Positions 3,181 to 39,768 of a stretch of DNA of 45,396 bases are shown one piece after another. Source of the DNA: a virus; the IMG/VR virus record IMGVR_UViG_3300045988_083430. The stretch is one strand, 5' to 3'. Below the pieces are notes generated by a model that saw nothing but the letters and a program-made list of their open reading frames with translations, was not told the DNA's origin and made no database searches. Within the stretch, counting starts at the first letter, position 1. Every line of letters starts with the position of its first letter. A program made the translations under genes and the position numbers.

Positions 3181-3186
3181 ATAACT

Positions 3187-3215: not shown

Positions 3216-3233
3216 AGCAGAGGTGTTAAACGG

Positions 3234-7343: not shown

Positions 7344-7361
7344 TTTTTAAGGAGGTATATA

Positions 7362-7724: not shown

Positions 7725-7738
7725 AAGGTGGTGAATGC

Positions 7739-8999: not shown

Positions 9000-9000
9000 T

Positions 9001-9528
9001 ATGCCGGGTAAAGTAATTGGTATTAAGATGAATACTGGCTATGTTGGTACCGTTTCAGCTTCTGCTGATGCTATCATTCAGGGCCGTATTGCTAAGAAGC
9101 TCATTAAGTTCGGTGAGCCTGTTGTTCTGGTGGCAGCTGAGAATAAGTATCTCGGTGTTGCTGATTCAATCACTGGTGGCACTGATTTCACCGCTCCCCA
9201 GTTCGCCGGTATCGCTGTTCGCGAGGTTGTACAGGCTAATGTGTATGACCCTCAGGAAACTCCTGGTTATGCTGCTAACTCTGTTGTTGATGTTCTGACT
9301 CGTGGTCAGTGCACAGTACTTTGCCAGAGAGGTACACCTACTGCTGGTGGTACAGTTTATGTTCGTACTGCTACAAGTGATACTTATCCCACTGCTGTGG
9401 TTGGTGGCTTCGAGGCTTCCGAAGAGGCTGATAAGACCGTTGCTCTGACCAATGTTCAGTGGACTACTGGCAACATGAATGCAGATAAGGTTGCTGAGGT
9501 AACCATTCTGACCCGTAATAAGGCGTAA
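9001..9528 (+). CDS. Putative capsid decoration or cement protein
   Basis: 175 aa between the scaffold and the major capsid gene. G/V/A/T-rich beta-type sequence. Shares the capsid-like codon bias. Confidence 0.35.
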   Translation: MPGKVIGIKMNTGYVGTVSASADAIIQGRIAKKLIKFGEPVVLVAAENKYLGVADSITGGTDFTAPQFAGIAVREVVQANVYDPQETPGYAANSVVDVLTRGQCTVLCQRGTPTAGGTVYVRTATSDTYPTAVVGGFEASEEADKTVALTNVQWTTGNMNADKVAEVTILTRNKA

Positions 9529-25459: not shown

Positions 25460-25481
25460 ATACTCACCCCGGAAAGGGTGA
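25448..25481 (+). promoter_or_regulatory. Two mutually exclusive hairpins at the junction between receptor-binding copies 1 and 2
   Basis: ggggtga (25448-25454) can pair with tcacccc (25464-25470). Alternatively tcaccc (25464-25469) can pair with gggtga (25476-25481), just upstream of ATG 25484. Confidence 0.4.
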
Positions 25482-25483
25482 AT

Positions 25484-26842: not shown

Positions 26843-26971
26843 ATGGGTTATTACACAGAAAAAGCCAAAGAAGTAAAGGCAAAACAGGAAGCAGAGCTTG
26901 CACAGTTGAAAGCAGCTTTGCAGACCATTGGCGTAGAAACAGAAGAAAAGGAGGTGACAGAAGATGCGTGA
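26843..26971 (+). CDS. 42-aa coiled-coil small protein (MGYYTEKAKEVKAKQEAELAQLKAALQTIG...)
   Basis: TAAATG-coupled to the upstream gene and overlaps the next ATG by 8 nt. Below the track cutoff. Confidence 0.45.
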   Translation: MGYYTEKAKEVKAKQEAELAQLKAALQTIGVETEEKEVTEDA

Positions 26972-27398
26972 TGACATTCAGAAACAGGCAGAACAGATTA
27001 GGACTAGCATGGATAATGTTTGTGGCAACCTCGCTGATGATGAAGCTATAAAGAACCTTATGCTGTTCCTGCCTTGGGAAGCTGATGTTGCCTATGTTGT
27101 TGGCGACAGACGCAGAGAAGCTGACAAGCTATATAAATGCATTCAGGCACACACTTCACAGGTTGGTTGGGAGCCGAGTAAAGTTCCTGCCCTGTGGACA
27201 GCAATTAACACGGGGCACGCTGGTTCAATTGATGACCCCATTCCTGCAAGCCGTGGCATGGAATATGAATACGGCAAGTACTACCTTGACCCGGAGGACG
27301 GCAAAACATACCTCTGCAAGCGTGGAAGTGAAACAGGCACCATTATCCTGCAGTACCTCCCGCATGAGCTTATCGGACACTACTTTGAAGTAGTTTAA
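26964..27398 (+). CDS. CBM5/12 (chitin-binding-type) carbohydrate-binding domain protein
   Basis: WEADVAYVVGDRRREADKLYKCIQAHTSQVGWEPSKVPALW closely matches the CBM5/12 consensus (..YKCxQxHTSxxGWEPSxVPALW). Confidence 0.7.
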   Translation: MRDDIQKQAEQIRTSMDNVCGNLADDEAIKNLMLFLPWEADVAYVVGDRRREADKLYKCIQAHTSQVGWEPSKVPALWTAINTGHAGSIDDPIPASRGMEYEYGKYYLDPEDGKTYLCKRGSETGTIILQYLPHELIGHYFEVV

Positions 27399-28034: not shown

Positions 28035-28730
28035 TTGGCAATTAGAGTTTATTTGTCACCTGAACGCAGACCAAAACCACATTCACCCTATTATGGTTAT
28101 CCTGGTATATACGAACATGATGTTTGCTGTGAAATAGCTGAATATACTAAAAACGCTTTGGTTCGTTGTGGTTTTGAAGTTAAAATAGCTTCACCAAACG
28201 ACAACATGAAAGTTAGAGTTGCTGAAGGTATTTCATGGAAAGCTAACTATTACATGCCAATTCATACAAATGCTGCTACAGCCACACTAAACGAAGGAAC
28301 AGCTCGTGGTCCTTGTGTGCTTAGATATGGCAAAGAAGGTGGTATTTCAGATAGGGCATGCAAAATAGTTTATAAACAGCTCATGGCGATTTATCCCAAT
28401 AAATCAAACAGAAGCAATCCTGTTTATGAACGCTCAGATTTCTATGAGATTGGTCAAACTCCCATGCTTTCTGTTTATCCTGAGCTTGCTTTCCATGATA
28501 ATCACGAAGATGCTGATTGGTTGGTTAACAATAAAAAAGAAATAGCTGAAGCTTTGTGTAAAGGTGTTTGTGAATGGTATTCAGTAAATTATGTAAATCC
28601 AGCATCTGAACCTACTAACACAGTTCCTAAAGCTAAATACGACGAAATAGTAAAAGAAAGAGACGCTTATAAGCAAAAATACGATTCATTGGTTATTTCA
28701 CTTACAAACCTTTATGAGTCACTTAAATAA
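28035..28730 (+). CDS. Endolysin, N-acetylmuramoyl-L-alanine amidase
   Basis: TTG start after GAGGAG. IHTNA and ELAFHDNHEDADW motifs typical of MurNAc-LAA amidases. Last gene of the late operon. Confidence 0.7.
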   Translation: MAIRVYLSPERRPKPHSPYYGYPGIYEHDVCCEIAEYTKNALVRCGFEVKIASPNDNMKVRVAEGISWKANYYMPIHTNAATATLNEGTARGPCVLRYGKEGGISDRACKIVYKQLMAIYPNKSNRSNPVYERSDFYEIGQTPMLSVYPELAFHDNHEDADWLVNNKKEIAEALCKGVCEWYSVNYVNPASEPTNTVPKAKYDEIVKERDAYKQKYDSLVISLTNLYESLK

Positions 28731-29228: not shown

Positions 29229-29715
29229 ACAGAAAACAGTAACGATTGACGATTTGCTTCAGGATTGTGTTAGCCTAAACAATCAAATCGCTGGACTTCA
29301 ATTGTTACTTAAGCAGAAAAAGGACAAAATCACAGAGTTTATGAAAGCTTCTGGTGAAACTAAGCTTAAATCTGATGGTGTTACATGCTATGTTCAAGAA
29401 AGAACTAAAGTTAACTATAATACCAAAAAGATGAGAGATGAGCTTCCGAAAGAAATGCTTAAGCAGTTTATTAAACGAGATGCTAAAATCTATGATACTA
29501 AACTGTTTCTTAAGCAATTGGCAGCTTCCGGTATTCCTTCAAGTACTTTTAAGGACAGCGTAGATTTTAATTATGTTGTCGACGAAAATGCTTTGAGTAA
29601 AGCATACGAAAAAGGCACAATTACTTTGGAGGACTTAGAGGGGTACTATGATGCAGAAACAACAAAAACAGTTGCATTCAGATTTACTGCAGAGCAACCC
29701 AGCTTCAAGACGTAA
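29221..29715 (+). CDS. Hypothetical protein with an N-terminal coiled coil (Gam/gp157-like architecture, unverified)
   Basis: 164 aa, AAGGAG RBS. No diagnostic motif. Confidence 0.45.
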   Translation: MAKQKTVTIDDLLQDCVSLNNQIAGLQLLLKQKKDKITEFMKASGETKLKSDGVTCYVQERTKVNYNTKKMRDELPKEMLKQFIKRDAKIYDTKLFLKQLAASGIPSSTFKDSVDFNYVVDENALSKAYEKGTITLEDLEGYYDAETTKTVAFRFTAEQPSFKT

Positions 29716-30661
29716 AGCTGAATTTATAGCTACCCTTAAGCATTATAATTTGTTAGAAATTTCAGAAACTAAATACAAGACAATTTGCCCATTTCACCAT
29801 GATAAGAATGCTTCGCTGATGATAGATATTGAAGAATCGAGATTTTACTGCTTCGGCTGCGGTGCTCATGGGAGCACACTTGAACTTATTAGTTTTTACG
29901 AGCCAGAGTTATCTACTATCAAGAAAATGATATTAGCTCATAGATATTTAAGAGATTCAGGTAAGCAAGAAAAATTAAGGGTATATATATATAATAATAT
30001 ATATAATAATAATATATATACTGAAGATAAAACCAATAATATATTAAACAGCAGAGATTATTATTTTGGTTTACCTATTACTAATTGGTATTTAGTTACT
30101 GATAATACAGATATGCAATATAAGCTATATTTACATGATAGAGGTTTTAAGTATAAAACTCTAAATGAAGTTGGTTGTAAATTAACTTATGATTCTAATT
30201 ATCCTATTATTTTTCCTATAAAAGATAACGGTATATTTAGAGGTTATGTATGTCGTACTACTAACAAAGAAATAGAAGCTAAACGTAAATATTTATATAA
30301 CAAAGGATTTAAGCGAAGAGATACTTTAGCAGGAGATTATTTTGGTAAAACAGTAATAATGGTTGAAGGCTTTATGGATATGCTTAAAGCTAAGCAATGT
30401 GGTTTTCAATCTGTTGTTGCTATTCTTGGTTGGAAATTAGCTGTTCCACAAATGGAGAAGCTAAAGAAAAAAGGAATAAAAAAGATAATCTGTGCTTTAG
30501 ATAACGATGACGCTGGAAATCGTGGATATGAATATTTACAGACTTTAGATTTTAAGGTCAAACGGCTTCAGTACCCTAATGGATGTAAAGATTTTGGAGA
30601 TATTACAGCAAAAACATTGCCCACAATCAGAAAACAAATAGATAATTTTGGAGGTTATTAA
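29648..30661 (+). CDS. dnaG: DNA primase, DnaG-type (CHC2 zinc finger plus Toprim), no helicase domain
   Basis: CPFHHDKNASLMIDIEESRFYCFGCGAHG zinc finger. Toprim motifs MVEGFMD and ALDNDDAG. Confidence 0.8.
   Translation: MMQKQQKQLHSDLLQSNPASRRKAEFIATLKHYNLLEISETKYKTICPFHHDKNASLMIDIEESRFYCFGCGAHGSTLELISFYEPELSTIKKMILAHRYLRDSGKQEKLRVYIYNNIYNNNIYTEDKTNNILNSRDYYFGLPITNWYLVTDNTDMQYKLYLHDRGFKYKTLNEVGCKLTYDSNYPIIFPIKDNGIFRGYVCRTTNKEIEAKRKYLYNKGFKRRDTLAGDYFGKTVIMVEGFMDMLKAKQCGFQSVVAILGWKLAVPQMEKLKKKGIKKIICALDNDDAGNRGYEYLQTLDFKVKRLQYPNGCKDFGDITAKTLPTIRKQIDNFGGY
29982..30020 (+). repeat. 39-nt A/T-only (TA/ATA) microsatellite-like tract inside the primase linker
   Basis: tatatatatataataatatatataataataatatatata encodes YIYNNIYNNNIY. 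aataatatat recurs three times between 29990 and 30055. Confidence 0.9.
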
Positions 30662-30662
30662 C

Positions 30663-31517
30663 ATGTCTGTTCTCGACACTATGAAAAATAAAATCAAGGA
30701 ATCTGGTTCTAACAAAAAGGAAATCGTTTATTTTGGTAAAGACAGCAAGCAGAAGTTTAGATTCCTTCAGGAGCTTGATACAGCTTATGAGTATGATGTA
30801 CATAGCTCTTGGAACGAAGGCTTTACTTCTATTTGTAAAGCTAGCCTGGGAGATGAATGTCCTTTGTGTGAAGATAATTCCATTGAGGATTTGAAGCTTC
30901 AGACTTATTTCGCCCTTTCTGTTTGGGACTATGAATCTCAGTCGGTTAGAATCATGTTCATGAAAGCTAACGGTATTTCTCCCATTCCTTCGCTGATTGA
31001 GTACTATGAAGAGTACGGTACTATTATGGACCGTGATTATACTATCAAGAAGCAAGGTTCTGGTATGGGTAGTTCTATGACAGTTCTTCCCGGTGAGAAG
31101 ATGAAGTTCTCTCAGAAAAATGTTAAACCTCTGAATCAGAAGCAGATTGAAAAGATTCTTCTTAAAGCATTCCCGATGCCTGGTGAAACAGCTAAGAACA
31201 ATGATGATGACGATGATGAAGATGAAGCTCCTAAGAAATCTAAATCTAAGTCTAAGAAGGAAGCACCCAAGAAAGCTAAGAAGGAGAAGAAAGACGATAA
31301 GAAGTGGCAGAAGGACCTTGAAGCTTGTGATGAAGATGAGCTGAAAGAAATTGCTATTGAGCTTGGCATGACGAAGAAGGAGCTCAAAGGCATTGAAGAT
31401 GAAGATGAGCTGTTTATGACTATCATCACTGACTATGAAAAAGATGATATTGTAGAAGCTTATAATTCTGTCATGAATGACGATGACGATGATGAAGATG
31501 AGGACGATGAAGACTAA
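30663..31517 (+). CDS. gp32-like zinc-containing ssDNA-binding protein with a Lys-rich/poly-Asp tail
   Basis: KFRFL..H..C...CPLC..YFALSVWDYES..VRIM parallels T4 gp32 (RFL, His + 3 Cys, YWANILVV). C-terminus DDDDDEDEDDED. Confidence 0.5.
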   Translation: MSVLDTMKNKIKESGSNKKEIVYFGKDSKQKFRFLQELDTAYEYDVHSSWNEGFTSICKASLGDECPLCEDNSIEDLKLQTYFALSVWDYESQSVRIMFMKANGISPIPSLIEYYEEYGTIMDRDYTIKKQGSGMGSSMTVLPGEKMKFSQKNVKPLNQKQIEKILLKAFPMPGETAKNNDDDDDEDEAPKKSKSKSKKEAPKKAKKEKKDDKKWQKDLEACDEDELKEIAIELGMTKKELKGIEDEDELFMTIITDYEKDDIVEAYNSVMNDDDDDEDEDDED

Positions 31518-31588
31518 GTAAAACAGAAAACTCCTGGATGTGGTAGAAATATCATGTCCAGGAGCTTCTATAAACAAAGGAGGATTTT

Positions 31589-31927
31589 ATGGTTACTCTA
31601 AATGATTTGTTTGATTATCAGGTCAAACTTCAAAAGATTTTGAATAATGTAAATTTACCTGACTGCAATGATGAAATGCTTGCTGAGTATGCTCTCGGTA
31701 TTTATACAGAACTTGGTGAAGCTTTAGCAATCAATAAGAACTGGAAGAAGTGGAGAGAAAAATCTGAATACGATACTTCTGAGTTCTTGGAAGAAATTGC
31801 AGACGTATGGATTTTTCTTATTAACTTCACTTTGGCTGCTGGTATGGACGCTGATGATATTATTTATGAAATCAACAGGAAGCAGCAGATTCTCAGTGAA
31901 AGGCTTAAAAACAAAGAAATTAGATAA
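31589..31927 (+). CDS. All-alpha NTP pyrophosphohydrolase (MazG / dimeric dUTPase-like)
   Basis: YTELGEA...WKKW...EEIADVWIFL: ExxE and EExxD metal motifs of the all-alpha NTP-PPase superfamily. Confidence 0.55.
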   Translation: MVTLNDLFDYQVKLQKILNNVNLPDCNDEMLAEYALGIYTELGEALAINKNWKKWREKSEYDTSEFLEEIADVWIFLINFTLAAGMDADDIIYEINRKQQILSERLKNKEIR

Positions 31928-31942
31928 ATTTACAAAAAGCTA

Positions 31943-31971
31943 TTTACTTTTGTTTTCATATGTGGTATAAT
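31943..31971 (+). promoter_or_regulatory. Promoter P4 (TTTACT-N17-TATAAT with TGn extended -10)
   Basis: -35 at 31943-31948, TG at 31963-31964, -10 at 31966-31971. Upstream aaaaagctaTTTAC. Confidence 0.65.
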
Positions 31972-32020
31972 GCAAAATGTAGTAAGTTAATCAGATTTGT
32001 AAACAGAAAGGAACACAGTT

Positions 32021-32242
32021 ATGTATTACGTTGAAACTAATTATTACTCGAGAAATAATGGTCATTCTTATAGGAGCTTTAGCTGCAAAGAAGATGCAAT
32101 AAAAGAAGCAGCTGCTATCTATTATGCAACCAAAGAAGAAGTAATAATTGGTGACAGCAATACAGGCTGTGTTCTTATTTGTTTTAACAAACTATCACAA
32201 CACGCAGATTTAATTAAAAAATACTTAGGGAGGCGGCTATGA
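32021..32242 (+). CDS. Hypothetical protein (73 aa)
   Basis: AAAGGAA RBS. ATGA-coupled to the next gene. Confidence 0.5.
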   Translation: MYYVETNYYSRNNGHSYRSFSCKEDAIKEAAAIYYATKEEVIIGDSNTGCVLICFNKLSQHADLIKKYLGRRL

Positions 32243-33189
32243 AAGGACTAATCGTTGTAGTAGAAGGACTCGAAAGGACTGGTAAAACTACTCTTTGTAA
32301 AGAATTTGAAAAACGTGGATTCGTTTATTTCAAGGATTTCAATCGAATCAATAAACACAATCGTATAGGAATGGAATCAAGGCTCGATACAACTCTTACG
32401 TTTCTTCAGAATCTTTCTGAAAATGGTGTAAATGTTGTAGTAGATAGACTTCATCTCTCAGAATATTCGTATGGAAATATTTTTAGAAATCTACAGGGAA
32501 CTGCATGTAATATTGATTATATCGATAATGCAATCAGTAAACTCAATTCAGTTCTTATTTACTGTAAAGGCAATGACTTTGAAGAATATAAAAAGAGAAT
32601 GCTTCTAAAATATACTCCTGAACAGGTAAAAAAGCTTTCTAATGAGTTCGAATATTATTTCGATAAATCTGAGATTAAGAATAAATTTGAATATGAATTT
32701 TCTCAGTATAATGCATCGGAATATGTTAATCTTATTTTTAAGTGTGTCGATTACTATGAATATGATTTCTATCTCGCTTCACCTTTCTTTAAAGATAGCC
32801 AAATTCAAAGGGAAGAATCAGTAAAAAACGCTCTTAGAAACGAAATGTATACGGTTTACTCTCCCAGAGAGAACGGAATTCTTACACCTGACGCAACAGA
32901 CGAAGTAAGAACAAAGATATTCAAAGAGAATTGTGAAGCTATTCAGAAATCTCATAGAATCTTGGCAATCACAGATGAAAAAGACATTGGAACAATCTGG
33001 GAAGCAGGTTACGCTTACGGTATCGGAAAAGAAGTTGTTTACTATGCCGAAACACTTGGAGACAATCCGTTTAATGTAATGCTTGGTAAATCTGGAATTG
33101 GTATTTTTACAAAATATAGTGATTTGATAGACGCAGCAAAAACAGGATCGTTCAACAATAAAAATGAGAAAGGATTGAATGTGCAATGA
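32239..33189 (+). CDS. Fusion of a P-loop dNMP/deoxynucleoside kinase-like domain and a nucleoside 2-deoxyribosyltransferase-like domain
   Basis: N-terminus VVVEGLERTGKTTL ... DRLHLSEYSY (Tmk/dNK-like). C-terminus FYLASPFF ... DIGTIWEAGYAYGIGKEVV (NDT/DNPH1-family motifs). Confidence 0.6.
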   Translation: MKGLIVVVEGLERTGKTTLCKEFEKRGFVYFKDFNRINKHNRIGMESRLDTTLTFLQNLSENGVNVVVDRLHLSEYSYGNIFRNLQGTACNIDYIDNAISKLNSVLIYCKGNDFEEYKKRMLLKYTPEQVKKLSNEFEYYFDKSEIKNKFEYEFSQYNASEYVNLIFKCVDYYEYDFYLASPFFKDSQIQREESVKNALRNEMYTVYSPRENGILTPDATDEVRTKIFKENCEAIQKSHRILAITDEKDIGTIWEAGYAYGIGKEVVYYAETLGDNPFNVMLGKSGIGIFTKYSDLIDAAKTGSFNNKNEKGLNVQ

Positions 33190-33746
33190 GAGGAGAATAC
33201 TTGGTTAAAAAAGATAGAGACATTCTTCAAAGAATGAGCTTTATGAAGCGATTTAACAACGAAATGCACTTTCATGATGAAAACGTAGCTGAACATTCTT
33301 TTTATGTTTCTGTATTTGCTATGATGCTTTGTGATGAACTTGCAGTATCAGCTAACATGAGAAGAGTTATTATCGAGAAAGCTATCATTCATGATATACA
33401 CGAGGTTGTGATCTCGGACGTTCCACATAACGTCAAAATGATCGAACCATCAATCTTGAAATTCTATACCAATTATGAGTCGAAGTACAACGCCTATCAT
33501 TTTGCTTCCCTGGTGCAGCTTTACGACAGCCTTGTTTTACATGACCGTCAGGTATGTGATGAGGTAGTTACACTGGCAGACATCATTTCAGTTATTCAAT
33601 ATGCACAGCTTGAGGTTTCCCTCGGTAATAAGAAGTTTGAAAAGATACTTGAAGGCGCTTGGGAAAGAGTTGATGATTGTTTCAGAAAGCTTACAGAGCT
33701 TGAAGTATATGGAATTGAACGAGTAATAGATTTTCTTAGAGATTAA
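33186..33746 (+). CDS. HD-domain 5'-deoxynucleotidase (YfbR-like)
   Basis: NVAEHSFYVSVFAMML ... AIIHDIHEVVISDVPHNVK matches YfbR-type HD motifs. Confidence 0.65.
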   Translation: MRGEYLVKKDRDILQRMSFMKRFNNEMHFHDENVAEHSFYVSVFAMMLCDELAVSANMRRVIIEKAIIHDIHEVVISDVPHNVKMIEPSILKFYTNYESKYNAYHFASLVQLYDSLVLHDRQVCDEVVTLADIISVIQYAQLEVSLGNKKFEKILEGAWERVDDCFRKLTELEVYGIERVIDFLRD

Positions 33747-33760
33747 AGGAGGAATAAACA

Positions 33761-34678
33761 ATGCCGGTAAATAATAATCTTAAACAATGCGGTTTCCCTA
33801 TGAATGTTAGGTTTGATGAAAAGCCTACTACAGTATTTAAGAACAATTTGGATTCTATCAAGGTAACGCTACTTGACCATCCTGATCAGGAAAATGCGAT
33901 TAACTATATGAGCATGTTCCTTGATGCTACATGGGTTGATACTCCTGCTGAATCAGCTAATATGAGTAAAGATAAGAAAATTCAGTATCTTAAAGACTGC
34001 ATTGCTGGTAAAGCTCTTCCTACAGCTTTGGAAACTATGCAGTTTACATTCCTTATTGAGGGCATTTCACTTCAGGAAGTAACTCATATTCTTAGAACTC
34101 GTACAGCTTCGTTCTCTGCTGACTGTTCTGCTGATAAGTGGTGGACTCATAAAGCTGCTTTGGTCCCTAATGCTATTCAGAATTCTCCTGAACTGTATGA
34201 ACGATATAAGAAACTTGTTGAAGAAACAAAACAGCTTTATTGCGACATTATTGATAGCAGACAGATTTCTATCATGGATGCTCGTTATATCCTCCCTCGT
34301 TGTTTGGAAACCTTCTATTATATGAGCATTGACTTTAAGAATCTTGTATCGTTCTTGCATCAGAGATTTGATAGACAGATTCAGCCAGAAACAGACAATG
34401 TTCTTGCTTATAAGATGTATGATGAACTTATTACAGCAATGCCCATTTTCAAAGGCTTGATTGATATTGATGAAGTTCCTCGTCATTGGGTTGCTACTTC
34501 TCGTACTGGTAAGTGCACTAACCTTTATAAGCCTGAAGAAAATGCAGATGTAATTGAATATAACGAAAATGATTTTATTTATAATGTAAAACGTTCAGAA
34601 CTTAATGGTACAAATCCTGGTGCTACTAATAAGTTCACTCAGTATTATAATCATTATAAAAAGAAATTCAGCGAATAA
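33761..34678 (+). CDS. thyX: ThyX-fold (flavin-dependent thymidylate synthase-like) protein with a divergent signature
   Basis: FTFLIEGISLQEVTHILRTRTASFSADCSAD aligns to the ThyX core FTFxIxGxSR....RHRxxSxxxxSxRY, but His, the Arg of SxR and other conserved residues are replaced. Confidence 0.55.
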   Translation: MPVNNNLKQCGFPMNVRFDEKPTTVFKNNLDSIKVTLLDHPDQENAINYMSMFLDATWVDTPAESANMSKDKKIQYLKDCIAGKALPTALETMQFTFLIEGISLQEVTHILRTRTASFSADCSADKWWTHKAALVPNAIQNSPELYERYKKLVEETKQLYCDIIDSRQISIMDARYILPRCLETFYYMSIDFKNLVSFLHQRFDRQIQPETDNVLAYKMYDELITAMPIFKGLIDIDEVPRHWVATSRTGKCTNLYKPEENADVIEYNENDFIYNVKRSELNGTNPGATNKFTQYYNHYKKKFSE

Positions 34679-34688
34679 GGAGAAATAA

Positions 34689-37355
34689 ATGAGCTTTTAC
34701 GATATACATCATCACTCTGAATTTTCATTGTTTGATGGTATGGCAAAAGTAAAAGATGCTGCAAAGTATGCTAAAGAATTAGGTTACCCTGCGCTTGGTA
34801 ATACTGACCATGGAAATATTTCAGCTTTGATTAAACATTTTAATGCATGCTCAGAGCAAGATATAATTCCTATTCTTGGATGCGAATTTTACTTTCAGCC
34901 TAAAATCAATCATGACAAACCCAGTTACCATTTGTGCTTGTTTGCTAATAGCTTTGAGGGTTGGAAAAATCTTAATAGGCTCACTTCTATTGCTAACGAT
35001 GATGAGCACTATTATTATAAGCCAAAACTTACTTTCGCTGACCTCAAGGAACATTCTGAAGGAATTGTATGCTCTTCAGCTTGTATTGGTGGTTATATAC
35101 CACAACTTTTGGTGAAACAAAATGAAGAAAAAGCAGATAAAGCTATTAAGAAATTCATTAGTATTTTTGGTAAAAACTTCTTTATTGAAATTCAGCCTAT
35201 TGAACTTCAAGGTGAAAATGAAGTTGAAGGACTTGAGAATTCTCAAATAATCATCAATAATGAACTCATCAGAAAGGCTAAAGAATTTAATATTCCTGTT
35301 ATTGCTACTTCAGATTCACATTTCATTAAAAAGGAAGATTTCCCAACTTACCTTAAGATGCATGCAATCAAAGGTTCTACACTTGGTGATGGTTATTCAG
35401 AACGATTTATGCCTTCTGAGAAATGCATGTATAAGAGAATTAAGAAATATCATAAAGATGATTTTGACTTCATCACAAAAGGATATGATACTTTCTTAAA
35501 ACGTGTTGGTGATTCAAGGGAATGGTTTGAATTTGAAACTGAAATGCCAGAATTTACAAATGACCCTGAAGAAACATTTAGATTGATGAAAAAGAAATGT
35601 TTGAAGACGCTCAAAGAGGAAGGCAAAACTTCTGATGAATATATGAAACGTCTTAAGCATGAATTTTCAGTAATCAAACATCATGGCTTTCAGGATTATT
35701 TCATGATTGTTCAGGAATATGTAAACTGGGCTCGTTCTCATGATATCGCTGTAGGACCTGGACGTGGTTCTGCTGGCAACTCTTTGGTAAACTACGCTCT
35801 TGGTATTACTAAAGTCGACCCAATATACTTTGGAAATAACTTTGATAGATTCTTGAGAAAAGACAAAAAGAAATTCCCTGATATTGATATGGACTTTTCC
35901 CAAAAGAATAGAGATAAAGTTATTCAGCACATCATTGAACAATATCCTGGTTCTGGTGCTCAAACAATAACATATGGTTGCTACAATATAAAGAATCTAA
36001 TATTGGATTTGGCTAAAGTTTGTGGAGCTGATTATAAAGATAAAGCTGAAATGGGAGCAATCAAGAAGTTCCTTGAAAAATATTGTGATGATAATGAATC
36101 AACGGTAGATGACGCTATTTATAATGACAAGAGATTTGATGAATACAATTCACTATATGATGATATTATCATTCACTTTATAAAGCTTTATGGTAAAGTT
36201 CGCTTCTTTGGAACACATGCTTCTTCTGTTATTCTTTGTGATGGTGACATCGTTTCTAAAGCTGGACTTTGTAGAATAGGAGGAAATTACAGAACATCAT
36301 TTGACCTTCATGATATGGAGATGATTAAGCTTCTTAAGCTTGATGTTCTTGGCCTTTCTACTACAGATAAAGTAAAAGAGCTCGAAGATATGTGCGGGGT
36401 ACATTTCAGCTATGATATTTTCAAAGATAAAGCTATGCTAAAAGGCTTTGAAAAAGGTAATGCTAGTGTATTTCAGTTTGAATCTCCTACGGCAAATGAT
36501 ATTGCTAAAGAAATTGGAATCGATAGCTTTGAAGATATTGTAGTTGCCACTTCAGTAAATAGACCTGGTCCTTTGTCCCTTAAGATGCACGAGAAATATA
36601 GAGACGCAAAGATTTCTCCTGACACTTCTTCTCCCTGGTATAAGTACACTAAACAGACTTATGGTACACTTATCTATCAGGAACAAGGCATGCCAATATG
36701 TAAAGAAATTGGTCAGCTGGACCCTGATACTACAGATAAGATTGTTAAAGCAGACTATCTGCATATTCCTCAGGAAAACCTTAAAGAATGGCAAGAGAAA
36801 TTCTATAAAGGTGCTAAAGAATATGGATTGAGCAAATCAGAAATGGAAACATTGTTCAATTCACTTATTCAGTATTCTTTTAACAGAGGACATGGTGTGG
36901 CTTATGCAATGCTTTCTGCAGAACTAATGTATTTCAAGGTTCATTACCCTTTGGAATTCTGGTATTCAACTCTTAAATGGGAGAACAACGCAGAAAAAAC
37001 TATCAAACAGGAAATCGGTGCCGTTCAAGATGGATGTATTATTCTTCTTCCTCATGTAAATGGTCCAATTGAATATGGTCTCGTAGAATATGATGGAGAT
37101 TTAGTCATTCAAAAAGGACTTTCTACTATTAAAGGTATCGGTGAAAAAGCTGCTGCTAAAATCGTAGAAGAACGTGAGAAGAATGGTAAGTTTAAGAATT
37201 ACAAAGATTTCTGCGATAGATGTGAAGTCACAAAGATAGCTAATATAAAGACAGTAGCTGCTTTGGAAAAAGAAGGTGCTTTGGATTTCAATCAGAAACG
37301 TTGGCTTTCTAGAGTAGAGAAATATAATGTTTCATTGTATGGAAGGAGCTTATAA
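34689..37355 (+). CDS. dnaE: DNA polymerase III alpha subunit-like replicative polymerase (PHP + Pol IIIa core + HhH)
   Basis: HHHSEFSLFDG and GNTDHGN (PHP domain), GRGSAGNSLVNYALGITKVDP, FPDIDMDF, GLSTIKGIGEKAAAKI. 888 aa. Confidence 0.85.
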   Translation: MSFYDIHHHSEFSLFDGMAKVKDAAKYAKELGYPALGNTDHGNISALIKHFNACSEQDIIPILGCEFYFQPKINHDKPSYHLCLFANSFEGWKNLNRLTSIANDDEHYYYKPKLTFADLKEHSEGIVCSSACIGGYIPQLLVKQNEEKADKAIKKFISIFGKNFFIEIQPIELQGENEVEGLENSQIIINNELIRKAKEFNIPVIATSDSHFIKKEDFPTYLKMHAIKGSTLGDGYSERFMPSEKCMYKRIKKYHKDDFDFITKGYDTFLKRVGDSREWFEFETEMPEFTNDPEETFRLMKKKCLKTLKEEGKTSDEYMKRLKHEFSVIKHHGFQDYFMIVQEYVNWARSHDIAVGPGRGSAGNSLVNYALGITKVDPIYFGNNFDRFLRKDKKKFPDIDMDFSQKNRDKVIQHIIEQYPGSGAQTITYGCYNIKNLILDLAKVCGADYKDKAEMGAIKKFLEKYCDDNESTVDDAIYNDKRFDEYNSLYDDIIIHFIKLYGKVRFFGTHASSVILCDGDIVSKAGLCRIGGNYRTSFDLHDMEMIKLLKLDVLGLSTTDKVKELEDMCGVHFSYDIFKDKAMLKGFEKGNASVFQFESPTANDIAKEIGIDSFEDIVVATSVNRPGPLSLKMHEKYRDAKISPDTSSPWYKYTKQTYGTLIYQEQGMPICKEIGQLDPDTTDKIVKADYLHIPQENLKEWQEKFYKGAKEYGLSKSEMETLFNSLIQYSFNRGHGVAYAMLSAELMYFKVHYPLEFWYSTLKWENNAEKTIKQEIGAVQDGCIILLPHVNGPIEYGLVEYDGDLVIQKGLSTIKGIGEKAAAKIVEEREKNGKFKNYKDFCDRCEVTKIANIKTVAALEKEGALDFNQKRWLSRVEKYNVSLYGRSL

Positions 37356-38269
37356 TGGACCTTAAAGCTATTAATGAATTATGCGCAGACCTTGAGAAAA
37401 AAGAAGGCAAAGGTTCTGTTTACAAACTCGGTTCTAAGAACTCTGCAAGAATAATACCTCGTTGGAGCACAGGAATTGAAGACCTTGATAATGCTATTGG
37501 CGGTGGAATTCCTCAAGGTAGAATTATAGAAATCTTTGGTGCTGAATCTGCTGGTAAAACTACACTTGCTTTGTGGTTGGCTCACCTCGTAGAAAAAGCT
37601 CTTTATATTCCTACAGAAGGTACATTTGATACTGAACGTGCTTTACAAATGGGGAACACTAAAGAGAACTTCTTAGTATATCAACCTGATTATGGTGAAC
37701 AGGCATTGAATCAGATTCTTAAGTTTGCTAAAGCAGGTATACCACTTATTATTCTTGATTCTGTTCCTGCTACTCAGCCAAGAGAGGATATTGAAAAGCT
37801 TGAGAAAGATGCACAAAATCAATTACGTCTTGGTGGTGTAGCTGCATTATTTGCTAAAATGCTTCCTACTATCGTTAGAACATGTGAAATGACAGGAACA
37901 ACACTTATTCTTATCAATCAAGTACGAGATAACATTGGAGCTGTTATGGCTTTCGGTGATAAAGATACGACACCAGGAGGTAGAGCTATTAGATTCTATT
38001 CTTCTATTAGAATTAAAGTAGCAAGACGTGCTTGGGTAGAAGTTCCTAATAAGAATCCTGCTAATTCTGCTGCTAATGAAAAGATAGGAATGATAATGAA
38101 ATGCAGAGTTGTAAAGAGTAAAGTATCTAATCCCTACCTTGAATGTGAGATACCTCTTTTGTTCGATAGAGGCTTCACTTCATTTGGTGACCTTCAAACT
38201 GCTCGTCAAGAAATTATGAAGGCAAATAGGTCTCGTAAAGGCAAAGTTCAAGATGATGACCAGGATTAA
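37355..38269 (+). CDS. recA: RecA recombinase
   Basis: GGIPQGRIIEIFGAESAGKTTLAL, LIILDSV, LILINQVR, TTPGGRAIRFYSSIRI. Colinear with bacterial RecA. Confidence 0.85.
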   Translation: MDLKAINELCADLEKKEGKGSVYKLGSKNSARIIPRWSTGIEDLDNAIGGGIPQGRIIEIFGAESAGKTTLALWLAHLVEKALYIPTEGTFDTERALQMGNTKENFLVYQPDYGEQALNQILKFAKAGIPLIILDSVPATQPREDIEKLEKDAQNQLRLGGVAALFAKMLPTIVRTCEMTGTTLILINQVRDNIGAVMAFGDKDTTPGGRAIRFYSSIRIKVARRAWVEVPNKNPANSAANEKIGMIMKCRVVKSKVSNPYLECEIPLLFDRGFTSFGDLQTARQEIMKANRSRKGKVQDDDQD

Positions 38270-38365
38270 ATCAGAACAGCAAGGATATATCTCAGAGACA
38301 TTTTATATATCATCTAATATAATTTAACATTTTAATATTAAAATGCTTTCTGGATATATCCTTGC
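38270..38365 (+). repeat. Structured element A: atcagaacagc box, long imperfect hairpin, AT-rich apex with an 18-nt palindrome
   Basis: 13-bp stem gcaaggatatatc (38279-38291) / gatatatccttgc (38353-38365), extendable by 4 bp. Palindrome cattttaatattaaaatg at 38328-38345. Homologous to element B. Confidence 0.7.
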
Positions 38366-39152
38366 TTCTCTAAAGAAAGGTTGTGAAAATGTGACAAACT
38401 TTAAGAAGACTTTAGGGCAAAACTTTGGTAAAAGTATACAAGGCGAAATGCTCAGACAGAAAATTGATAATTTATACATGGAGGCTGAAGGCCAAAGGGA
38501 AGAAAGATACGGACTTCATGCTTCAGCTATCATTGCCAGTGATGAGCAATTTTGCTTGAGACAGCAGGTTCTATCTCTGTTTTTTAAGATGAATCAGGGG
38601 GAAGAACTTCCTGTTAAAACACGTAAAATTTTTCATCATGGAAACACAATCCACGAAGAGGTTTATGATGTATTTCGCAAAACTGGAGTTATGATAGATT
38701 CAGAAGTAACGAGATATGTTGATAAATACGATCTGAGTTACACAATTGATGCAAATGTTCATTTGTTGAATAAAGATTGGATTTGTGATGTTAAATCAAT
38801 GAATTCTTTTGCTTGGGAAAAAGCTACAGGACATCCGTCTGGTGAAAAACAAGTTATGTTTTATATGTGGCTTCAGAAAAATCCAAATGGTTTTGTTCTC
38901 GCATATAACAAAAACACATCAGAAATTAAATGTTTCCCTGTAAAGTTTGACAAAGAAAAAGTTAGACCATTTGTTGACAGACTTAAAGAAATTCAGGTTT
39001 GTAAAAAAGAATTCCTCGATGACGGTACGCTTCCTGATAGAAAATGTAAAAACTGTGACACGAAAAAAGCTATCGAGTGCAGCATGAGAGATGCATGCTT
39101 TGAAATTGGTATGGGAAGGGTGAAGCTGAAAAGTGGCAAAGCGGGGAGCTGA
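38343..39152 (+). CDS. PD-(D/E)XK exonuclease, Cas4/RecB-like, with a Cys cluster
   Basis: YGLHASAI..FCLRQ, ICDVKS (ExK-type), C-terminal CKNCDTKKAIEC. Start uncertain: ATG 38343 lies inside hairpin A, with alternatives GTG 38391 and ATG 38448. Confidence 0.6.
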   Translation: MLSGYILASLKKGCENVTNFKKTLGQNFGKSIQGEMLRQKIDNLYMEAEGQREERYGLHASAIIASDEQFCLRQQVLSLFFKMNQGEELPVKTRKIFHHGNTIHEEVYDVFRKTGVMIDSEVTRYVDKYDLSYTIDANVHLLNKDWICDVKSMNSFAWEKATGHPSGEKQVMFYMWLQKNPNGFVLAYNKNTSEIKCFPVKFDKEKVRPFVDRLKEIQVCKKEFLDDGTLPDRKCKNCDTKKAIECSMRDACFEIGMGRVKLKSGKAGS

Positions 39153-39768
39153 TAAAAGAAATATCTGGAAAAAAGAATGGCGTACACCACTCTGCGTTAT
39201 AGGAATCGATCAATCTTACACTCGAACAGGTATTACAGTTTCACAAAGAGGAAAGATAAAATTTATCACTTCAGTTGATTTCAAAGGACTAAAATCTAAG
39301 ACAGAAAAACGAAAAGCTGTATGTGATAAATTGGATTTCTGTTTAGACAAATGTTTGAAACAGTATCAACCGCAAAAGATTATTGTTATAGTTGAACGAA
39401 TTCGAATGTTTACTCAAACAGTTGTTCTTTCTCAGAATTATATGACAACTACTGCAGGTTTAGTTTCTGCTATTGTAGATACAGCTTATTGGAAAGGCGT
39501 AAAAACATATTCTGTTGACACAAGAGCCTGGAAATCAGCTGTATTAGGAAGTAGTAAACCGAGTTGCGAACCTCTTGATGGGTGTGATAATCCACAAAAG
39601 ATAGCTTCTGTAAGACATGTAATAGATTTAGGTTTTGAAGAACAAATAAGAATAACAGGATATAATAATAGGTTTATCGGTTATAACGATGATGCTGCAG
39701 ATAGTGCTAATATATCTTTATATGGCTTTTTACCTGTAGAAAAGATATATTTACATAGAGAAGAATAA
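39133..39768 (+). CDS. RuvC-like Holliday junction resolvase
   Basis: CVIGIDQSYTRTGITV (GID motif), VERIRMF, DDAADSANISLYG. Confidence 0.6.
   Translation: MAKRGADKRNIWKKEWRTPLCVIGIDQSYTRTGITVSQRGKIKFITSVDFKGLKSKTEKRKAVCDKLDFCLDKCLKQYQPQKIIVIVERIRMFTQTVVLSQNYMTTTAGLVSAIVDTAYWKGVKTYSVDTRAWKSAVLGSSKPSCEPLDGCDNPQKIASVRHVIDLGFEEQIRITGYNNRFIGYNDDAADSANISLYGFLPVEKIYLHREE

Follow-up and report, generated by a model that had tools for sequence, protein, structure and literature searches.

Organization of the locus

A cluster of nucleotide-metabolism genes lies immediately upstream of a DNA polymerase gene in IMGVR_UViG_3300045988_083430, and we asked whether it supplies ordinary thymidylate or remodels the nucleotide pool towards a modified base. 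The window, i.e., the whole stretch of 45,396 nucleotides that was analyzed, belongs to a human-gut phage. All ORFs of positions 31589–34678 were present at their annotated coordinates on the + strand. The features, including the nucleoside 2-deoxyribosyltransferase (NDT) domain, are as follows:

31589..31927, + strand: MazG/dimeric-dUTPase-like all-alpha NTP pyrophosphatase (112 aa; Pfam dUTPase_2, PHROG 173)
31943..31971, + strand: sigma-70-like promoter candidate (TTTACT-17-TGnTATAAT, extended -10; consensus match only)
32021..32242, + strand: 73-aa ORF with a 4-bp overlap with the start of the fusion gene
32239..32733, + strand: Tmk-like P-loop kinase domain (N-terminal part of the fusion, residues 1 to ~165)
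32764..33189, + strand: NDT domain of the Tyr/Asn/Glu triad type (residues ~176–316 of the fusion; PF05014, 6evs)
33186..33746, + strand: YfbR-type HD-domain 5'-deoxynucleotidase (186 aa; PF12917, YfbR-like)
33761..34678, + strand: phage-restricted non-canonical ThyX paralogue (305 aa; N- and C-terminal extensions; Pfam Thy1)
34689..37355, + strand: DnaE-type DNA polymerase III alpha (PF07733 2.5e-60, PHP 1.7e-41), immediately downstream of the ThyX-like gene

The first-pass annotation had described five consecutive enzyme genes. Its four domain assignments were all borne out by Pfam, PHROG and structure models, and the four enzyme genes stand as listed, but the fifth ORF is the 73-aa frame without assignment. 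This ORF had no match in Pfam, PHROG or NCBIfam, was kept solely in the close relatives L002 and L003, and is outside the conserved module. The promoter candidate lies within the 93-bp gap between the MazG-like gene and the 73-aa ORF; promoter-like matches were not enriched in the wider region (35 found vs. 42.8 expected from shuffles).

Conservation of the module

The comparison covered 34 dereplicated IMG/VR loci in which the NDT gene is flanked on each side by 3 kb or more. Within this NDT clade, on which the co-occurrence figures are conditional as the loci were picked via the NDT gene, a nucleotidase (HD or NT5C) was present in 33/34 loci, the ThyX-like gene in 32 and a small Tmk-like kinase in 29, and all three occurred together in 28. 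The HD gene adjoined the NDT gene in 32 of the 34, and the MazG-like gene was found ≤6 kb from it in 21. A non-homologous enzyme, an NT5C-family deoxy-pyrimidine nucleotidase (PF06941), stands in for the HD enzyme in L055, L059, L063, L064, L066 and L069–71, and some modules include a dCMP deaminase. The arrangement is far from chance, given that dozens of distantly related phage contigs share this gene set. As had been proposed, the cluster is a functional unit and not a chance neighbourhood. In other phages the module adjoins family-A polymerases; therefore, it has no tie to DnaE. The suggestion that these enzymes rebalance dNTPs for an AT-rich genome was not upheld, as it leaves the constant tie to thymidylate-branch enzymes unexplained.

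Pyrophosphatase, nucleotidase and kinase–NDT fusion

The MazG-like protein matched Pfam dUTPase_2 (1.4e-10; 42 bits vs. a cut-off of 22.9) and PHROG 173 'NTP pyrophosphohydrolase' (9.6e-14), and its acidic metal motif (E41/E44/E68/E69/D72) was kept across 24 relatives. The HD protein matched Pfam YfbR-like PF12917 (6e-23), with OxsA (1.7e-7) and YfbR (0.004) as its best PDB matches. Its residues R22, H37, H69, D70, E73, D78 and D132 correspond to R18, H33, H68, D69, E72, D77 and D137 of YfbR, and all of these catalytic equivalents were kept in 61 homologues.

The N-terminal ~165 residues of the fusion protein (32239–33189, 316 aa) form a P-loop kinase. In Foldseek searches, the AF2 model of the fusion (pLDDT 86, pTM 0.82) matched NDTs (TMt 0.78–0.85), thymidylate kinases and YorR, and the kinase domain matched vaccinia, Plasmodium and human Tmk together with SPbeta YorR. 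Kinase residues E9, G10, G15, K16, D69 and R70 were invariant among 27–58 family members, similarity to type-I Tmk extends to the P-loop EG[IL][DE]R[VT]GKTT and to the VVDR motif, and PF02223 was precomputed for many family members. Judged by its type-I Tmk P-loop and DR motif, the fused kinase is Tmk-like, i.e., a predicted dNMP kinase unlike a nucleoside kinase.

The NDT domain matched PF05014 (2.8e-15) and PDB 6evs (7e-13). Residues Y178, N231, E255, D249, N279 and P209 were kept in fused and standalone module NDTs, and Asn replaced the general acid Asp of NDTs in all of them. Features of the D249, N279 and P209 type are reported to distinguish transferases from dNMP hydrolases (PMC12884076). 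Since these three residues are invariant, giving a nucleoside-type 5'-OH pocket, the module NDT is predicted to act on nucleosides.

Nucleotidase, NDT and kinase had been suggested to form a closed loop. The nucleotidase-to-NDT step is supported by the nucleoside-type pocket and by the swap of the HD gene for NT5C in some lineages. However, rephosphorylation by the fused kinase was not supported, because a Tmk-like enzyme that does not resemble a nucleoside kinase would not alone close the loop from nucleoside to dNMP; a thymidine kinase is still required, either that of the host or a phage-encoded one, as in phage GR1. Therefore, substrate channelling by the fusion is not indicated. The fusion is also lineage-specific: in most other lineages the kinase has a gene of its own (~145–175 aa), and in L017, L018, L027 and L057 this gene stands next to a standalone NDT gene.

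The ThyX-like protein

The ThyX-like protein (305 aa) matched Pfam Thy1 (1.9e-23) and scored 52 bits against the NCBI thyX equivalog TIGR02170, below the cut-off of 87.9; all other module ThyX-like proteins scored 17–50 bits against the same cut-off. Its AF2 model (pLDDT 82) has the ThyX fold at merely 13–21% identity. Throughout the clade, His53, Gln75, Arg90 and Tyr91 are swapped for other invariant residues, with an extra Cys122. In the signature, L-P replaces H53-E54, H109 replaces Q75, RTR is present, and C122-S-A-D125-K126-W replaces L-S-G-R90-Y91-S; D125, at the Arg90 position, is nearly invariant. Residues R112, R114, R175 and R202, equivalent to Tm R78, R80, R147 and R174, are kept, and the extensions comprise 60–80 residues. 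In the literature, ThyX Ser88 and Tyr91 are described as strictly conserved, Tyr91 being a lid that shields uracil C5 and flavin N5 from solvent. Control viral ThyX proteins retained S-x-R-Y or S-x-R-F.

The clade is almost phage-only, with 3 MAG contigs among 185,579 species genomes. In L066, L069 and L070, a gene for a canonical ThyX (171–181 bits, RHR-x7-SRRY) stands ~3 kb away from the ThyX-like one; L076 has a canonical ThyX too, and in L079 a ThyA homologue lies beside the ThyX-like gene. These five loci all come from small phage genomes. The altered active site, low score, phage restriction and canonical ThyX or ThyA alongside suggest that the ThyX-like protein is probably not a standard thymidylate synthase. 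Mycobacteria, corynebacteria and some other cells have both ThyA and ThyX; therefore, co-occurrence of paralogues is no proof of a different function. With the phosphate-binding arginines and Arg174 retained, the protein may still be capable of binding dUMP and making dTMP, and the roles of Tyr91 and Arg90 might have passed to Tyr256 and Arg278, which are invariant in the C-terminal extension.

A proposed pathway to a modified pyrimidine

Our leading, albeit tentative, reading treats the region as a single instance of a conserved phage module acting on the thymidylate branch of the dNTP pool. Before replication, the module would reshape this branch to yield a pyrimidine dNTP modified at C5, with 5-hydroxymethyl-dU as the probable product, while the canonical nucleotide is drained and its deoxyribose recycled. 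This building block would probably be made instead of, or alongside, ordinary thymidylate. The scheme is built on the folds, motifs and catalytic residues of the four enzymes, the conservation of the gene set, and the alteration and co-occurrences of the ThyX-like protein; from these we infer all substrates and products, the modified base, and full versus partial replacement.

For synthesis, the ThyX-like protein would act on a pyrimidine dNMP (dUMP being the likeliest) and place at C5 some group that is not a reduced methyl. Our best guess is hydroxymethyl, giving 5-hm-dUMP, and the Tmk-like kinase domain would convert the product to the diphosphate. For the drain, the MazG-like and YfbR-type enzymes would take competing canonical dTTP or dUTP to dNMP and on to the deoxynucleoside. 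The Asn-type NDT would recover the deoxyribose by base exchange, e.g., thymidine + uracil to deoxyuridine + thymine, and the thymidine kinase would return the recycled nucleoside to dUMP. In lineages that also have a canonical ThyX, a dTMP drain would be counterproductive; therefore, the scheme may differ among lineages.

Links to modified DNA

The idea that the cluster follows the logic of T4 and SPO1 on a ThyX scaffold gained comparative support from the lost catalytic residues, the sub-cut-off score, the canonical ThyX or ThyA alongside and the T4 a-gt homologue of GR1. Within the module, GR1-like phages encode an alpha-glucosyltransferase of PHROG 2888 (E 1.4e-48), whose only homologues in cultured phages were T4-like a-gt genes. 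It resembles T4 a-gt only remotely (22% identity) and had no PDB sequence match. Geobacillus phage GR1 encodes a thymidine kinase and has no other annotated C5-transferase. A nucleotide-sugar epimerase adjoins NT5C-type modules, and in Vibrio phage 150E35-1 a cytidylyltransferase-like gene and a gene for a glycosyltransferase come after consecutive HD, ThyX-like, NDT and MazG genes. The ThyX-like gene of Streptococcus phage GXN1 follows NDT-HD, and its product shares 40.5% identity with gp130 of Bacillus phage SP-15, in which an Asn-type NDT lies two genes upstream of gp130. In SP-15, a C5-modified uracil formed at nucleotide level, before DNA synthesis, stands in place of >50% of thymine (PMC5977210).

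The window phage itself tells against a bulky modification. Its genome strongly avoids restriction-type palindromes, T-containing ones included: 23 GATC sites were observed vs. 154 expected, 2 TTTAAA vs. 26, 1 ATTAAT vs. 18 and 1 GATATC vs. 16. Such avoidance would be unexpected in DNA shielded by a bulky modification and argues against one in this phage; plain hmdU, which protects DNA poorly, is compatible. No glycosyltransferase or other recognizable DNA-modification gene was found in the window.

Alternative explanations

The chief competing reading, an ordinary dTTP supply with salvage for canonical DNA, is quite possible, if on the doubtful side. The ThyX-like protein would be a genuine, very divergent thymidylate synthase fed with dUMP by the MazG-like protein as a dUTPase, with the Tmk-like kinase making dTDP; HD and NDT would salvage the deoxyribose of surplus host-DNA dNMPs onto uracil or thymine, and thymidine kinase would return dU or dT. 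The dUTPase_2, Thy1 and Tmk-type matches form the classic dTTP trio, the equivalents of Arg78, Arg80, Arg147 and Arg174 are kept, and the dCMP deaminase of some modules suits dUMP supply. The window holds no other thymidylate synthase, so dTMP would otherwise be host-dependent; it lacks recognizable modification genes, and palindrome avoidance of this kind is what unmodified phage DNA typically shows. Phage T5, whose DNA is canonical, has an HD-type dNMP 5'-nucleotidase as well, and PHROG 318 gave a weak match. However, the ThyX-like protein lacks His53, Arg90 and Tyr91 and scores far under the equivalog cut-off; control viral ThyX proteins retain the S-x-R-Y or S-x-R-F motif; a canonical ThyX or ThyA homologue accompanies it in the five small-genome loci. 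The a-gt homologue inside the GR1-type module and the related module in SP-15, whose thymine is proven to be hypermodified, also speak against ordinary supply, which gives no reason for the strict tie of deoxyribose salvage to a phage-only ThyX type.

The pathway could instead be directed at cytosine, as in T4 or XP12, which we consider unlikely. The ThyX-like protein would hydroxymethylate or methylate dCMP, the MazG-like protein would be a dCTPase, the kinase would act on modified dCMP, and dTMP would come from the host or a separate canonical ThyX or ThyA, whose co-occurrence makes sense if the phage still requires T. The change of Arg90 to Asp (D125) is a donor-to-acceptor switch of the type expected for recognition of the cytosine 4-amino group, in parallel with ThyA Asn177 vs. 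Asp179 in T4 dCMP hydroxymethylase, and the glucosyltransferase homologue is nearest to T4 a-gt, an hmC-acting enzyme. However, the module is otherwise U/T-centred (Tmk-like kinase, NT5C-type deoxy-pyrimidine nucleotidases), Arg174 is retained, the dCMP deaminase of some loci would destroy the substrate, nucleotidase and NDT have no obvious role, and the window strongly avoids C-containing sites such as GATC.

A role in general pool sanitation or counter-defence, with no new base, is very improbable. Here the enzymes would break down or rebalance nucleotides of the host or those generated by defence, as DatZ/MazZ do in Z-genome phages or in response to dNTP-depleting defences. The HD protein does match PHROG 7076, annotated 'dATP triphosphohydrolase' (2.7e-20), and MazG-like, YfbR-like and NDT-family enzymes cooperate in 2-aminoadenine phages (PMC12884076), but the window has no PurZ/adenylosuccinate-synthetase homologue, and PDB sequence searches yielded neither DatZ nor MazZ. 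In addition, the NDT is of the nucleoside type, which sets it apart from DmtZ, and the obligatory ThyX-like and Tmk-like partners are left unexplained.

Comparison with known systems

The ThyX-like protein shares its fold, phosphate-binding arginines, Arg174 and Pfam Thy1 with canonical ThyX (T. maritima, M. tuberculosis, PBCV-1), but differs in the replaced His53, Gln75, Arg90 and Tyr91, Cys122, extensions, sub-cut-off score and phage restriction. PolB, a ThyX-derived UMP methylase, shows that a substrate change is possible among ThyX paralogues. Similarly, the NDT shares its fold, Tyr and Glu nucleophile, 5'-OH ligands and water-excluding Pro with bacterial type II NDTs (L. leichmannii, B. 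psychrosaccharolyticus 6evs), but differs in Asn for the general acid Asp, the kinase fusion and the phage nucleotide-metabolism context.

In Z-genome phages, DatZ, MazZ and DmtZ (YfbR-like HD, MazG-like and NDT-family with Asn in the triad) jointly reshape the dNTP pool (PMC12884076). The same three enzyme families occur in the window module, whereas PurZ does not and the partner is ThyX-like, not purine-directed. DmtZ acts on dAMP without the 5'-OH-binding Asp and Asn, both of which the module NDT retains.

SP-15 genes 127–130 (NDT, SDR and the divergent Thy1 gp130) likewise place an Asn-type NDT near a divergent long ThyX-family protein. However, gp130 (413 aa; function hypothesized) belongs to a different ThyX-like subgroup, with no BLAST match to the window protein and a Foldseek E of 3e-4, and the SP-15 NDT is a tandem NDT, whereas that of the window is fused to a kinase. 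With T4 gp56/gp42/gp1, which act alongside alpha- and beta-glucosyltransferases, our proposed scheme shares canonical dNTP removal, dNMP C5 modification and a dedicated kinase, and GR1-like modules add the remote homologue of T4 a-gt. T4, unlike the module, uses a ThyA scaffold, is cytosine-directed and has no nucleotidase or NDT, and the window phage has no glucosyltransferase.

The hmdU pathway of the Bacillus phages SPO1, SP8, phi-e and SP5C comprises dUMP hydroxymethylase, hmdUMP kinase, dTTPase/dUTPase, dTMP 5'-nucleotidase and dCMP deaminase; to our knowledge, NDT has not been described as a component. There the hydroxymethylase is of the ThyA family, whereas here the homologue is of the ThyX family and its product is a prediction; no demonstrated ThyX-family hydroxymethylase is known, SP-15 gp130 being a hypothesized one. 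In predicted activities, the module resembles the SPO1-type pathway in its NTP pyrophosphatase, dNMP 5'-nucleotidase, thymidylate-synthase homologue, dNMP kinase and, in some loci, dCMP deaminase, which would likewise act before replication.

Gene content of the module and its genome

All the genes that the first-pass annotation had named in the cluster were present on the + strand, and dnaE followed directly:

31589–31927, +: MazG/dimeric-dUTPase-like all-alpha NTP pyrophosphatase (Pfam dUTPase_2, 1.4e-10, above cut-off; PHROG 173)
31943–31971, +: extended -10 promoter match, 5' of the 73-aa ORF
32021–32242, +: 73-aa ORF of unknown function, between the MazG-like and fusion genes
32239–33189, +: fusion of a Tmk-like kinase and a nucleoside 2-deoxyribosyltransferase (NDT), 316 aa
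33186–33746, +: YfbR-like HD phosphohydrolase (PF12917, 6e-23; 81.9 bits against a cut-off of 25.9)
33761–34678, +: Thy1-domain ThyX-like protein (PF02511, 1.9e-23; 83.7 bits against a cut-off of 24.8)
34689–37355, +: dnaE, directly after the ThyX-like gene

The window is a nearly complete myovirus genome of ~45 kb with a GC content of ~36%, in which genes for the large and small terminase, portal, major head protein, tail sheath and baseplate were recognised. Genes recognised in the replication module (29648–39768) are those for a primase that lacks a helicase domain, DnaE, an SSB, a RuvC-like resolvase, a RecA/UvsX-like protein and an exonuclease of the Cas4 type; the ORFs scanned in the window did not include a replicative helicase. 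An identical ThyX-like protein was found on a 45,468-bp ENA contig from a human gut metagenome. Hundreds of relatives at 84–92% identity lie on metagenome contigs of 43–47 kb, and megablast of the window against GenBank phages gave no match at the DNA level. The following features lie outside the module:

2887–2974: tRNA-Ser(TGA), between the terminase and portal regions
3105–3180: tRNA-Thr(TGT), between the terminase and portal regions
24269–25459 and 25478–26842: adjacent genes for Kelch-repeat proteins of 396 and 454 aa, tail region
26964–27398: CBM5/12 protein, after the Kelch-repeat pair
28035–28730: Amidase_3 lysin, after the Kelch-repeat pair and the CBM5/12 protein
30648–31517: SSB-like protein whose C-terminal half is long, of low complexity and rich in Lys, Asp and Glu

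The two Kelch-repeat proteins are probably receptor-binding proteins, and a 316-aa antisense ORF over the SSB-like gene (30627–31577) is almost certainly spurious. Between the SSB-like and MazG-like genes, a perfect 8-bp hairpin (CTCCTGGA ... TCCAGGAG, loop of 18 nt) occupies 31531–31564; as it lacks a T-run, it does not qualify as a classic intrinsic terminator.

The fusion protein joins a nucleoside-type NDT to a thymidylate kinase-like domain

The C-terminal domain of the fusion is a bona fide NDT, as had been proposed from the sequence. It matched PDB 6evs at 7e-13, and the AF2 model of the whole protein (pLDDT 86, pTM 0.82) superposed on solved NDTs in Foldseek, with TMt values of 0.78 for 6evs and 0.80–0.85 for 7o62. 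Residue conservation was assessed in two alignments, with 27 and 58 members of the family; the nucleophile Glu255, the orienting Tyr178 and the residues Asp249, Asn279 and Pro209 were invariant. The position of the general acid (D72 in LlNDT) is Asn231, and Asn occupies it in 18/18 fused and 53/60 standalone module NDTs, whereas characterised bacterial NDTs have Asp. An Asn at this position also occurs in TbPDT and DmtZ (PMC12884076). Poubanne et al. (2026) described three marks of nucleoside transferases, an Asp and an Asn that bind the 5'-OH and a Pro that excludes water; in DNPH1 and DmtZ, which act on dNMPs, the Asp and Asn are replaced by small uncharged residues that leave room for the 5'-phosphate (PMC12884076). 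The NDT domain keeps D249, N279 and P209, and its substrates should therefore be deoxynucleosides rather than dNMPs. The same three residues rule out a DNPH1-like dNMP hydrolase or an enzyme of the DmtZ type.

The first ~165 residues have an NMP-kinase fold. They retain a P-loop (E9, G10, G15, K16), with G10-x4-G15-K16-T invariant, and an equally invariant D69-R70 motif. The P-loop EG[IL][DE]R[VT]GKTT and the VVDR motif resemble those of type-I thymidylate kinases. Many members carry a precomputed PF02223 match, and the structural neighbours of the model in Foldseek included thymidylate kinases (vaccinia, Plasmodium and human) and YorR, a short kinase of SPbeta. TIGR00041 reached 25 bits on this domain against a cut-off of 83, covering the P-loop only, and no conserved LID region was found in its ~165 aa. 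Neither dNK nor dCK appeared among the top 50 Foldseek matches. The domain thus looks like a dNMP kinase rather than a nucleoside kinase. The first-pass annotation had envisaged a closed loop in which the kinase directly re-phosphorylates the product of the NDT; this proposal is weakened by the Tmk-type motifs and neighbours, and a loop-closing deoxynucleoside kinase is unsupported.

The pyrophosphatase and the HD protein retain catalytic residues

The MazG-like protein keeps the acidic metal motif E-x2-E ... E-E-x2-D (E41, E44, E68, E69 and D72). The closest solved relatives of the HD protein are OxsA and YfbR, and its residues R22, H37, H69, D70, E73, D78 and D132 are kept at ≥85% in 61 homologues. 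They correspond to the catalytic residues R18, H33, H68, D69, E72, D77 and D137 of YfbR (E. coli numbering). E. coli ThyA and YfbR and L. leichmannii NDT served as guide sequences in the respective comparisons. The HD protein scored 46.5 against an NCBIfam equivalog cut-off of 122. In lineages of the module that lack the HD gene, an NT5C-family deoxy-pyrimidine 5'-nucleotidase (PF06941) stands in its place. Because of this replacement and the conserved YfbR residues, the HD protein is predicted to convert dNMPs to deoxynucleosides. Its PHROG match (7076) bears the name of a triphosphohydrolase of the DatZ kind; despite that name, the replacement and the conserved residues together argue against a DatZ-like role.

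The ThyX-like protein has an altered active site

Judged by its sequence, the 305-aa ThyX-like protein is not a standard ThyX. As a single sequence it matched solved ThyX structures marginally (E 0.008), and a profile of 30 clade members reached 2e-6. The AF2 model (pLDDT 82, pTM 0.83) has the ThyX fold at 13–21% identity and matched the ThyX proteins of Mtb, T. maritima (Tm) and PBCV-1 with TMt values of 0.6–0.7; its neighbours also include PolB, a substrate-switched paralogue, and an atypical ThyX. The TIGR02170 thyX cut-off of 87.9 bits was not reached by the window protein (52 bits) or by the ThyX-like proteins of other modules (17–50 bits).

The ThyX motif RHR-x7-S-x-R-Y (Tm R78, H79, R80, S88, R90, Y91) is replaced in the window by RTR-x8-S-A-D-K, so that Tm Arg90 corresponds to Asp125 and Tyr91 to Lys126. 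Across the clade, the Tm segment L87-S88-G89-R90-Y91-S92 reads C-[ST]-[GA]-D-[KR]-W, Tm His53-Glu54 of the H-E-T-P-F-E-H segment is an invariant L86-P87, and Tm Gln75 is an invariant His. In ThyX, Ser88 and Tyr91 are strictly conserved and critical, Arg90 is conserved, and Tyr91 acts as a lid that keeps solvent away from uracil C5 and flavin N5 (PMC11940539, PMC6514825). The ligands of the dUMP phosphate and base (Arg78, Arg80, Arg147 and Arg174) are retained as R112, R114, R175 and R202, without exception among 30 members of the clade. The motif is intact in two viral ThyX proteins used as controls (SQRY in DZ1 and SHRF in ARV1).

A second subgroup of ThyX-like proteins has the motif RHR-x7-S-Q-M-P. 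This subgroup (IMG/VR locus L036, 8965–9876) carries a Cys-rich C-terminal extension, CDCF...CFTCDD...FCDG...ENC, whose pattern suggests a metal or Fe-S site; canonical ThyX and the window clade lack it. The protein annotated as thymidylate synthase in Xanthomonas phage XcP1 (Carpasinavirus; L086, MH191395 41395–42153) has RTR and a non-canonical T-S-R-A, and lies near a 3-oxoacyl-ACP-reductase-like gene, which recalls the SDR gene beside gp130 of phage SP-15.

The module is conserved across phages

At E ≤ 1e-10 the ThyX-like clade numbers 716 proteins or more, and its occurrence in cellular genomes was confined to three phage-sized MAG contigs among 185,579 species. An exhaustive search yielded ~30 clusters (50% identity) with the full-length fusion, and 80 IMG/VR loci were fetched with NDT patterns. 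The gene order MazG-like, kinase, NDT, HD, ThyX-like recurs well outside the fusion lineage. In most loci the kinase is a separate gene of ~145–175 aa, detected with an HMM of the N-terminal domain, and is located directly after the ThyX-like gene, between the HD and ThyX-like genes, or just 5' of the NDT gene. Co-occurrence was counted in 34 dereplicated loci (NDT <80% identical, ≥3 kb on either side); these loci were picked through their NDT gene, and the counts are conditional on the NDT clade.

Partners within 6 kb of the NDT gene in 34 dereplicated loci
ThyX-like: 32/34
HD: 32/34
HD or NT5C nucleotidase: 33/34
Tmk-like kinase: 29/34
MazG-like: 21/34
Nucleotidase, ThyX-like and kinase jointly: 28/34

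The cluster in the window is a conserved module, with examples among phages of the human gut and among Bacillus, Geobacillus, Streptococcus and Vibrio phages. Some loci additionally encode a dCMP deaminase, and the neighbouring polymerases are of both the DnaE type and family A. A literature search found no description of a ThyX-family hydroxymethylase or of an NDT-HD-ThyX module.

Most relatives of the fusion lineage (L004–L018, e.g. L013:10852–11454) have a ~200-aa ORF between the ThyX-like gene and dnaE, which is absent from the window; it gave a weak match to PHROG 160 'thymidylate synthase' (6.5e-4) and no Pfam match.

Genomic context of the ThyX-like protein beyond the window

Three loci (L066, L069 and L070) encode a canonical ThyX (232–236 aa, 171–181 bits with TIGR02170, RHRTWSYNEISRRY) ~3 kb from a module-type ThyX-like protein of 325 aa and 45.6 bits; in L069 the canonical gene lies at 3096–3794 and the ThyX-like gene at 6989–7966. 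L076 also pairs a canonical ThyX with a ThyX-like protein, and L079 has a ThyA homologue. Some bacteria have ThyA and ThyX together, and this paralogy is therefore suggestive of a function other than dTMP synthesis but not conclusive. In L069 and L070 (both at 8450–9250), whose NT5C-type modules contain both ThyX forms, a homologue of Fpg/Nei-family DNA glycosylases directly follows the NDT gene (170 bits with TIGR00577, whose cut-off is 203); its substrates in DNA could be unmodified or oxidised pyrimidines.

Geobacillus phage GR1, whose host is G. stearothermophilus ATCC 10149, has a ThyX-like protein (UDY80709.1) 48% identical to that of the window. Between its HD and kinase genes lies a gene matching PHROG 2888 'alpha-glucosyltransferase' at 1.4e-48, whose only homologues among 50,697 phage records by tblastn were T4-like DNA alpha-glucosyltransferases at ~22% identity. 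A PDB sequence search with the protein gave no match, and its assignment as a glycosyltransferase follows from the PHROG and remote tblastn matches. No other annotated C5-transferase was found in GR1. The phage (loci L090, OK896991 40057–42169, and L091, 8491–8973) also encodes a second NDT, a thymidine kinase, an amidoligase and a gamma-glutamylcyclotransferase (GGCT); comparative genomics has tied genes of the last two kinds to base hypermodification. A literature search on GR1 itself found nothing. A nucleotide-sugar epimerase gene adjoins NT5C-type modules, and in Vibrio phage 150E35-1 the HD, ThyX-like, NDT and MazG genes are consecutive, and next come genes for a cytidylyltransferase-like protein and a glycosyltransferase.

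A further connection leads to Bacillus phage SP-15. Streptococcus phage GXN1 (vB_SagM-GXN1) encodes, after NDT-HD, a 411-aa ThyX-like protein 40.5% identical to SP-15 gp130, and in SP-15 (L093, KT624200 113729–116910) an Asn-type NDT lies two genes 5' of gp130. This NDT, SP15_127, is a tandem protein with an active Asn-type N-terminal half and a degenerate C-terminal half; after it come SP15_129, a short-chain dehydrogenase, and gp130, a divergent protein with a Thy1 domain. SP15_127 also has 316 aa, a coincidence of length; its tandem NDT structure rules out the same kinase-NDT fusion. In SP-15, a C5-modified uracil made before DNA synthesis stands in place of more than half of the thymine, and Kropinski et al. 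proposed gp130 as the hmdUMP synthase, as a hypothesis without a test (PMC5977210). Old labelling work, as relayed in PMC5977210, has a ribose carbon entering the dihydroxypentyl side chain of DHPU. NDT-type sugar transfer might accordingly help to build that side chain. More distant homologues occur in YerA41, whose DNA is reportedly heavily modified.

Interpretation of the module

The first-pass annotation had read the cluster as possible base-exchange salvage or a possible base-modification pathway. The gene identities held and the modified-base logic gained partial support; the direct kinase-NDT loop was weakened. We favour, tentatively and with slightly less than even confidence, a pre-replicative pathway that combines a repurposed ThyX, a kinase, a drain and deoxyribose recycling. 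The ThyX-like protein would yield a C5-modified pyrimidine dNMP, most likely 5-hm-dUMP, and the Tmk-like kinase would phosphorylate it. The MazG-like and HD proteins would remove the canonical competitor by breaking this nucleotide down to the nucleoside, and the NDT would recycle the deoxyribose through base exchange.

A canonical dTTP supply and salvage line, in which the ThyX-like protein is a very divergent yet genuine thymidylate synthase, is the main contender, although we lean towards doubting it. In its favour, no second thymidylate synthase and no glycosyltransferase or other recognisable modification gene were found in the window. Restriction-type palindromes are also very strongly avoided there: GATC occurs 23 times against 154 expected (z -12.9), CTAG 29 against 78, TTTAAA 2 against 26, ATTAAT 1 against 18 and GATATC 1 against 16. 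The pattern points to hosts whose restriction systems are GATC-, DraI-, AseI- and EcoRV-like, and to window DNA that lacks broad protection. The avoidance fits restriction-exposed DNA and argues against a bulky protective modification in this phage; plain 5-hmdU, which protects DNA poorly, would be compatible with it. The retained phosphate ligands and Arg174 speak for a thymidylate synthase, but they make dUMP binding plausible under either reading. Two invariant residues in the C-terminal extension, Tyr256 and Arg278, might conceivably take over the roles of Tyr91 and Arg90. On the other side stand the altered motif and the loci with both ThyX forms.

A cytosine-directed version of the modification pathway is improbable, and pool sanitation or counter-defence alone is more improbable still; both are less likely than the modified-base and canonical dTTP readings. 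A Z-genome (DatZ, MazZ and DmtZ with PurZ) was rejected: the NDT is of the nucleoside type, PDB sequence searches gave no match to DatZ or MazZ, and the scanned ORFs of the window included no adenylosuccinate-synthetase homologue (PurZ or PurZ0), the large leftover ORFs of that scan being the Kelch-repeat tail proteins.

Implications and comparison with known systems

To our knowledge, all phage DNA-rewriting pyrimidine C5-hydroxymethylases and methylases characterised so far are ThyA homologues. It is quite possible, though we would not count on it, that the ThyX-like clade represents the first flavin-dependent, ThyX-scaffold pyrimidine deoxynucleotide hydroxymethylase, in a widespread and previously unrecognised pathway. 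If so, the enzyme would bring new flavin chemistry, in which loss of the Tyr lid lets water, not hydride, quench the exocyclic methylene intermediate, and hundreds of phage genomes would carry these genes under a wrong label, 'FAD-dependent thymidylate synthase'. Thymine would then be replaced, wholly or partly, by 5-hydroxymethyluracil or its derivatives in abundant phages of gut, marine and soil habitats, with glycosylation in GR1-like and Vibrio phages. Gut viromes may hold far more modified DNA than has been supposed, which would bear on phage therapy, on sequencing bias and on the evasion of restriction and CRISPR. NDTs and HD nucleotidases, often listed vaguely as 'auxiliary metabolic genes', would gain a concrete role in a pathway, the NDT as a new step that recycles deoxyribose. 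Cultured phages carry the module or a related one (Geobacillus GR1, Streptococcus GXN1 and SP-15), and the question is thus directly testable. The proposed pathway shares the logic of SPO1 and T4, but it would be built on a ThyX scaffold and would add a nucleotidase-NDT recycling arm.
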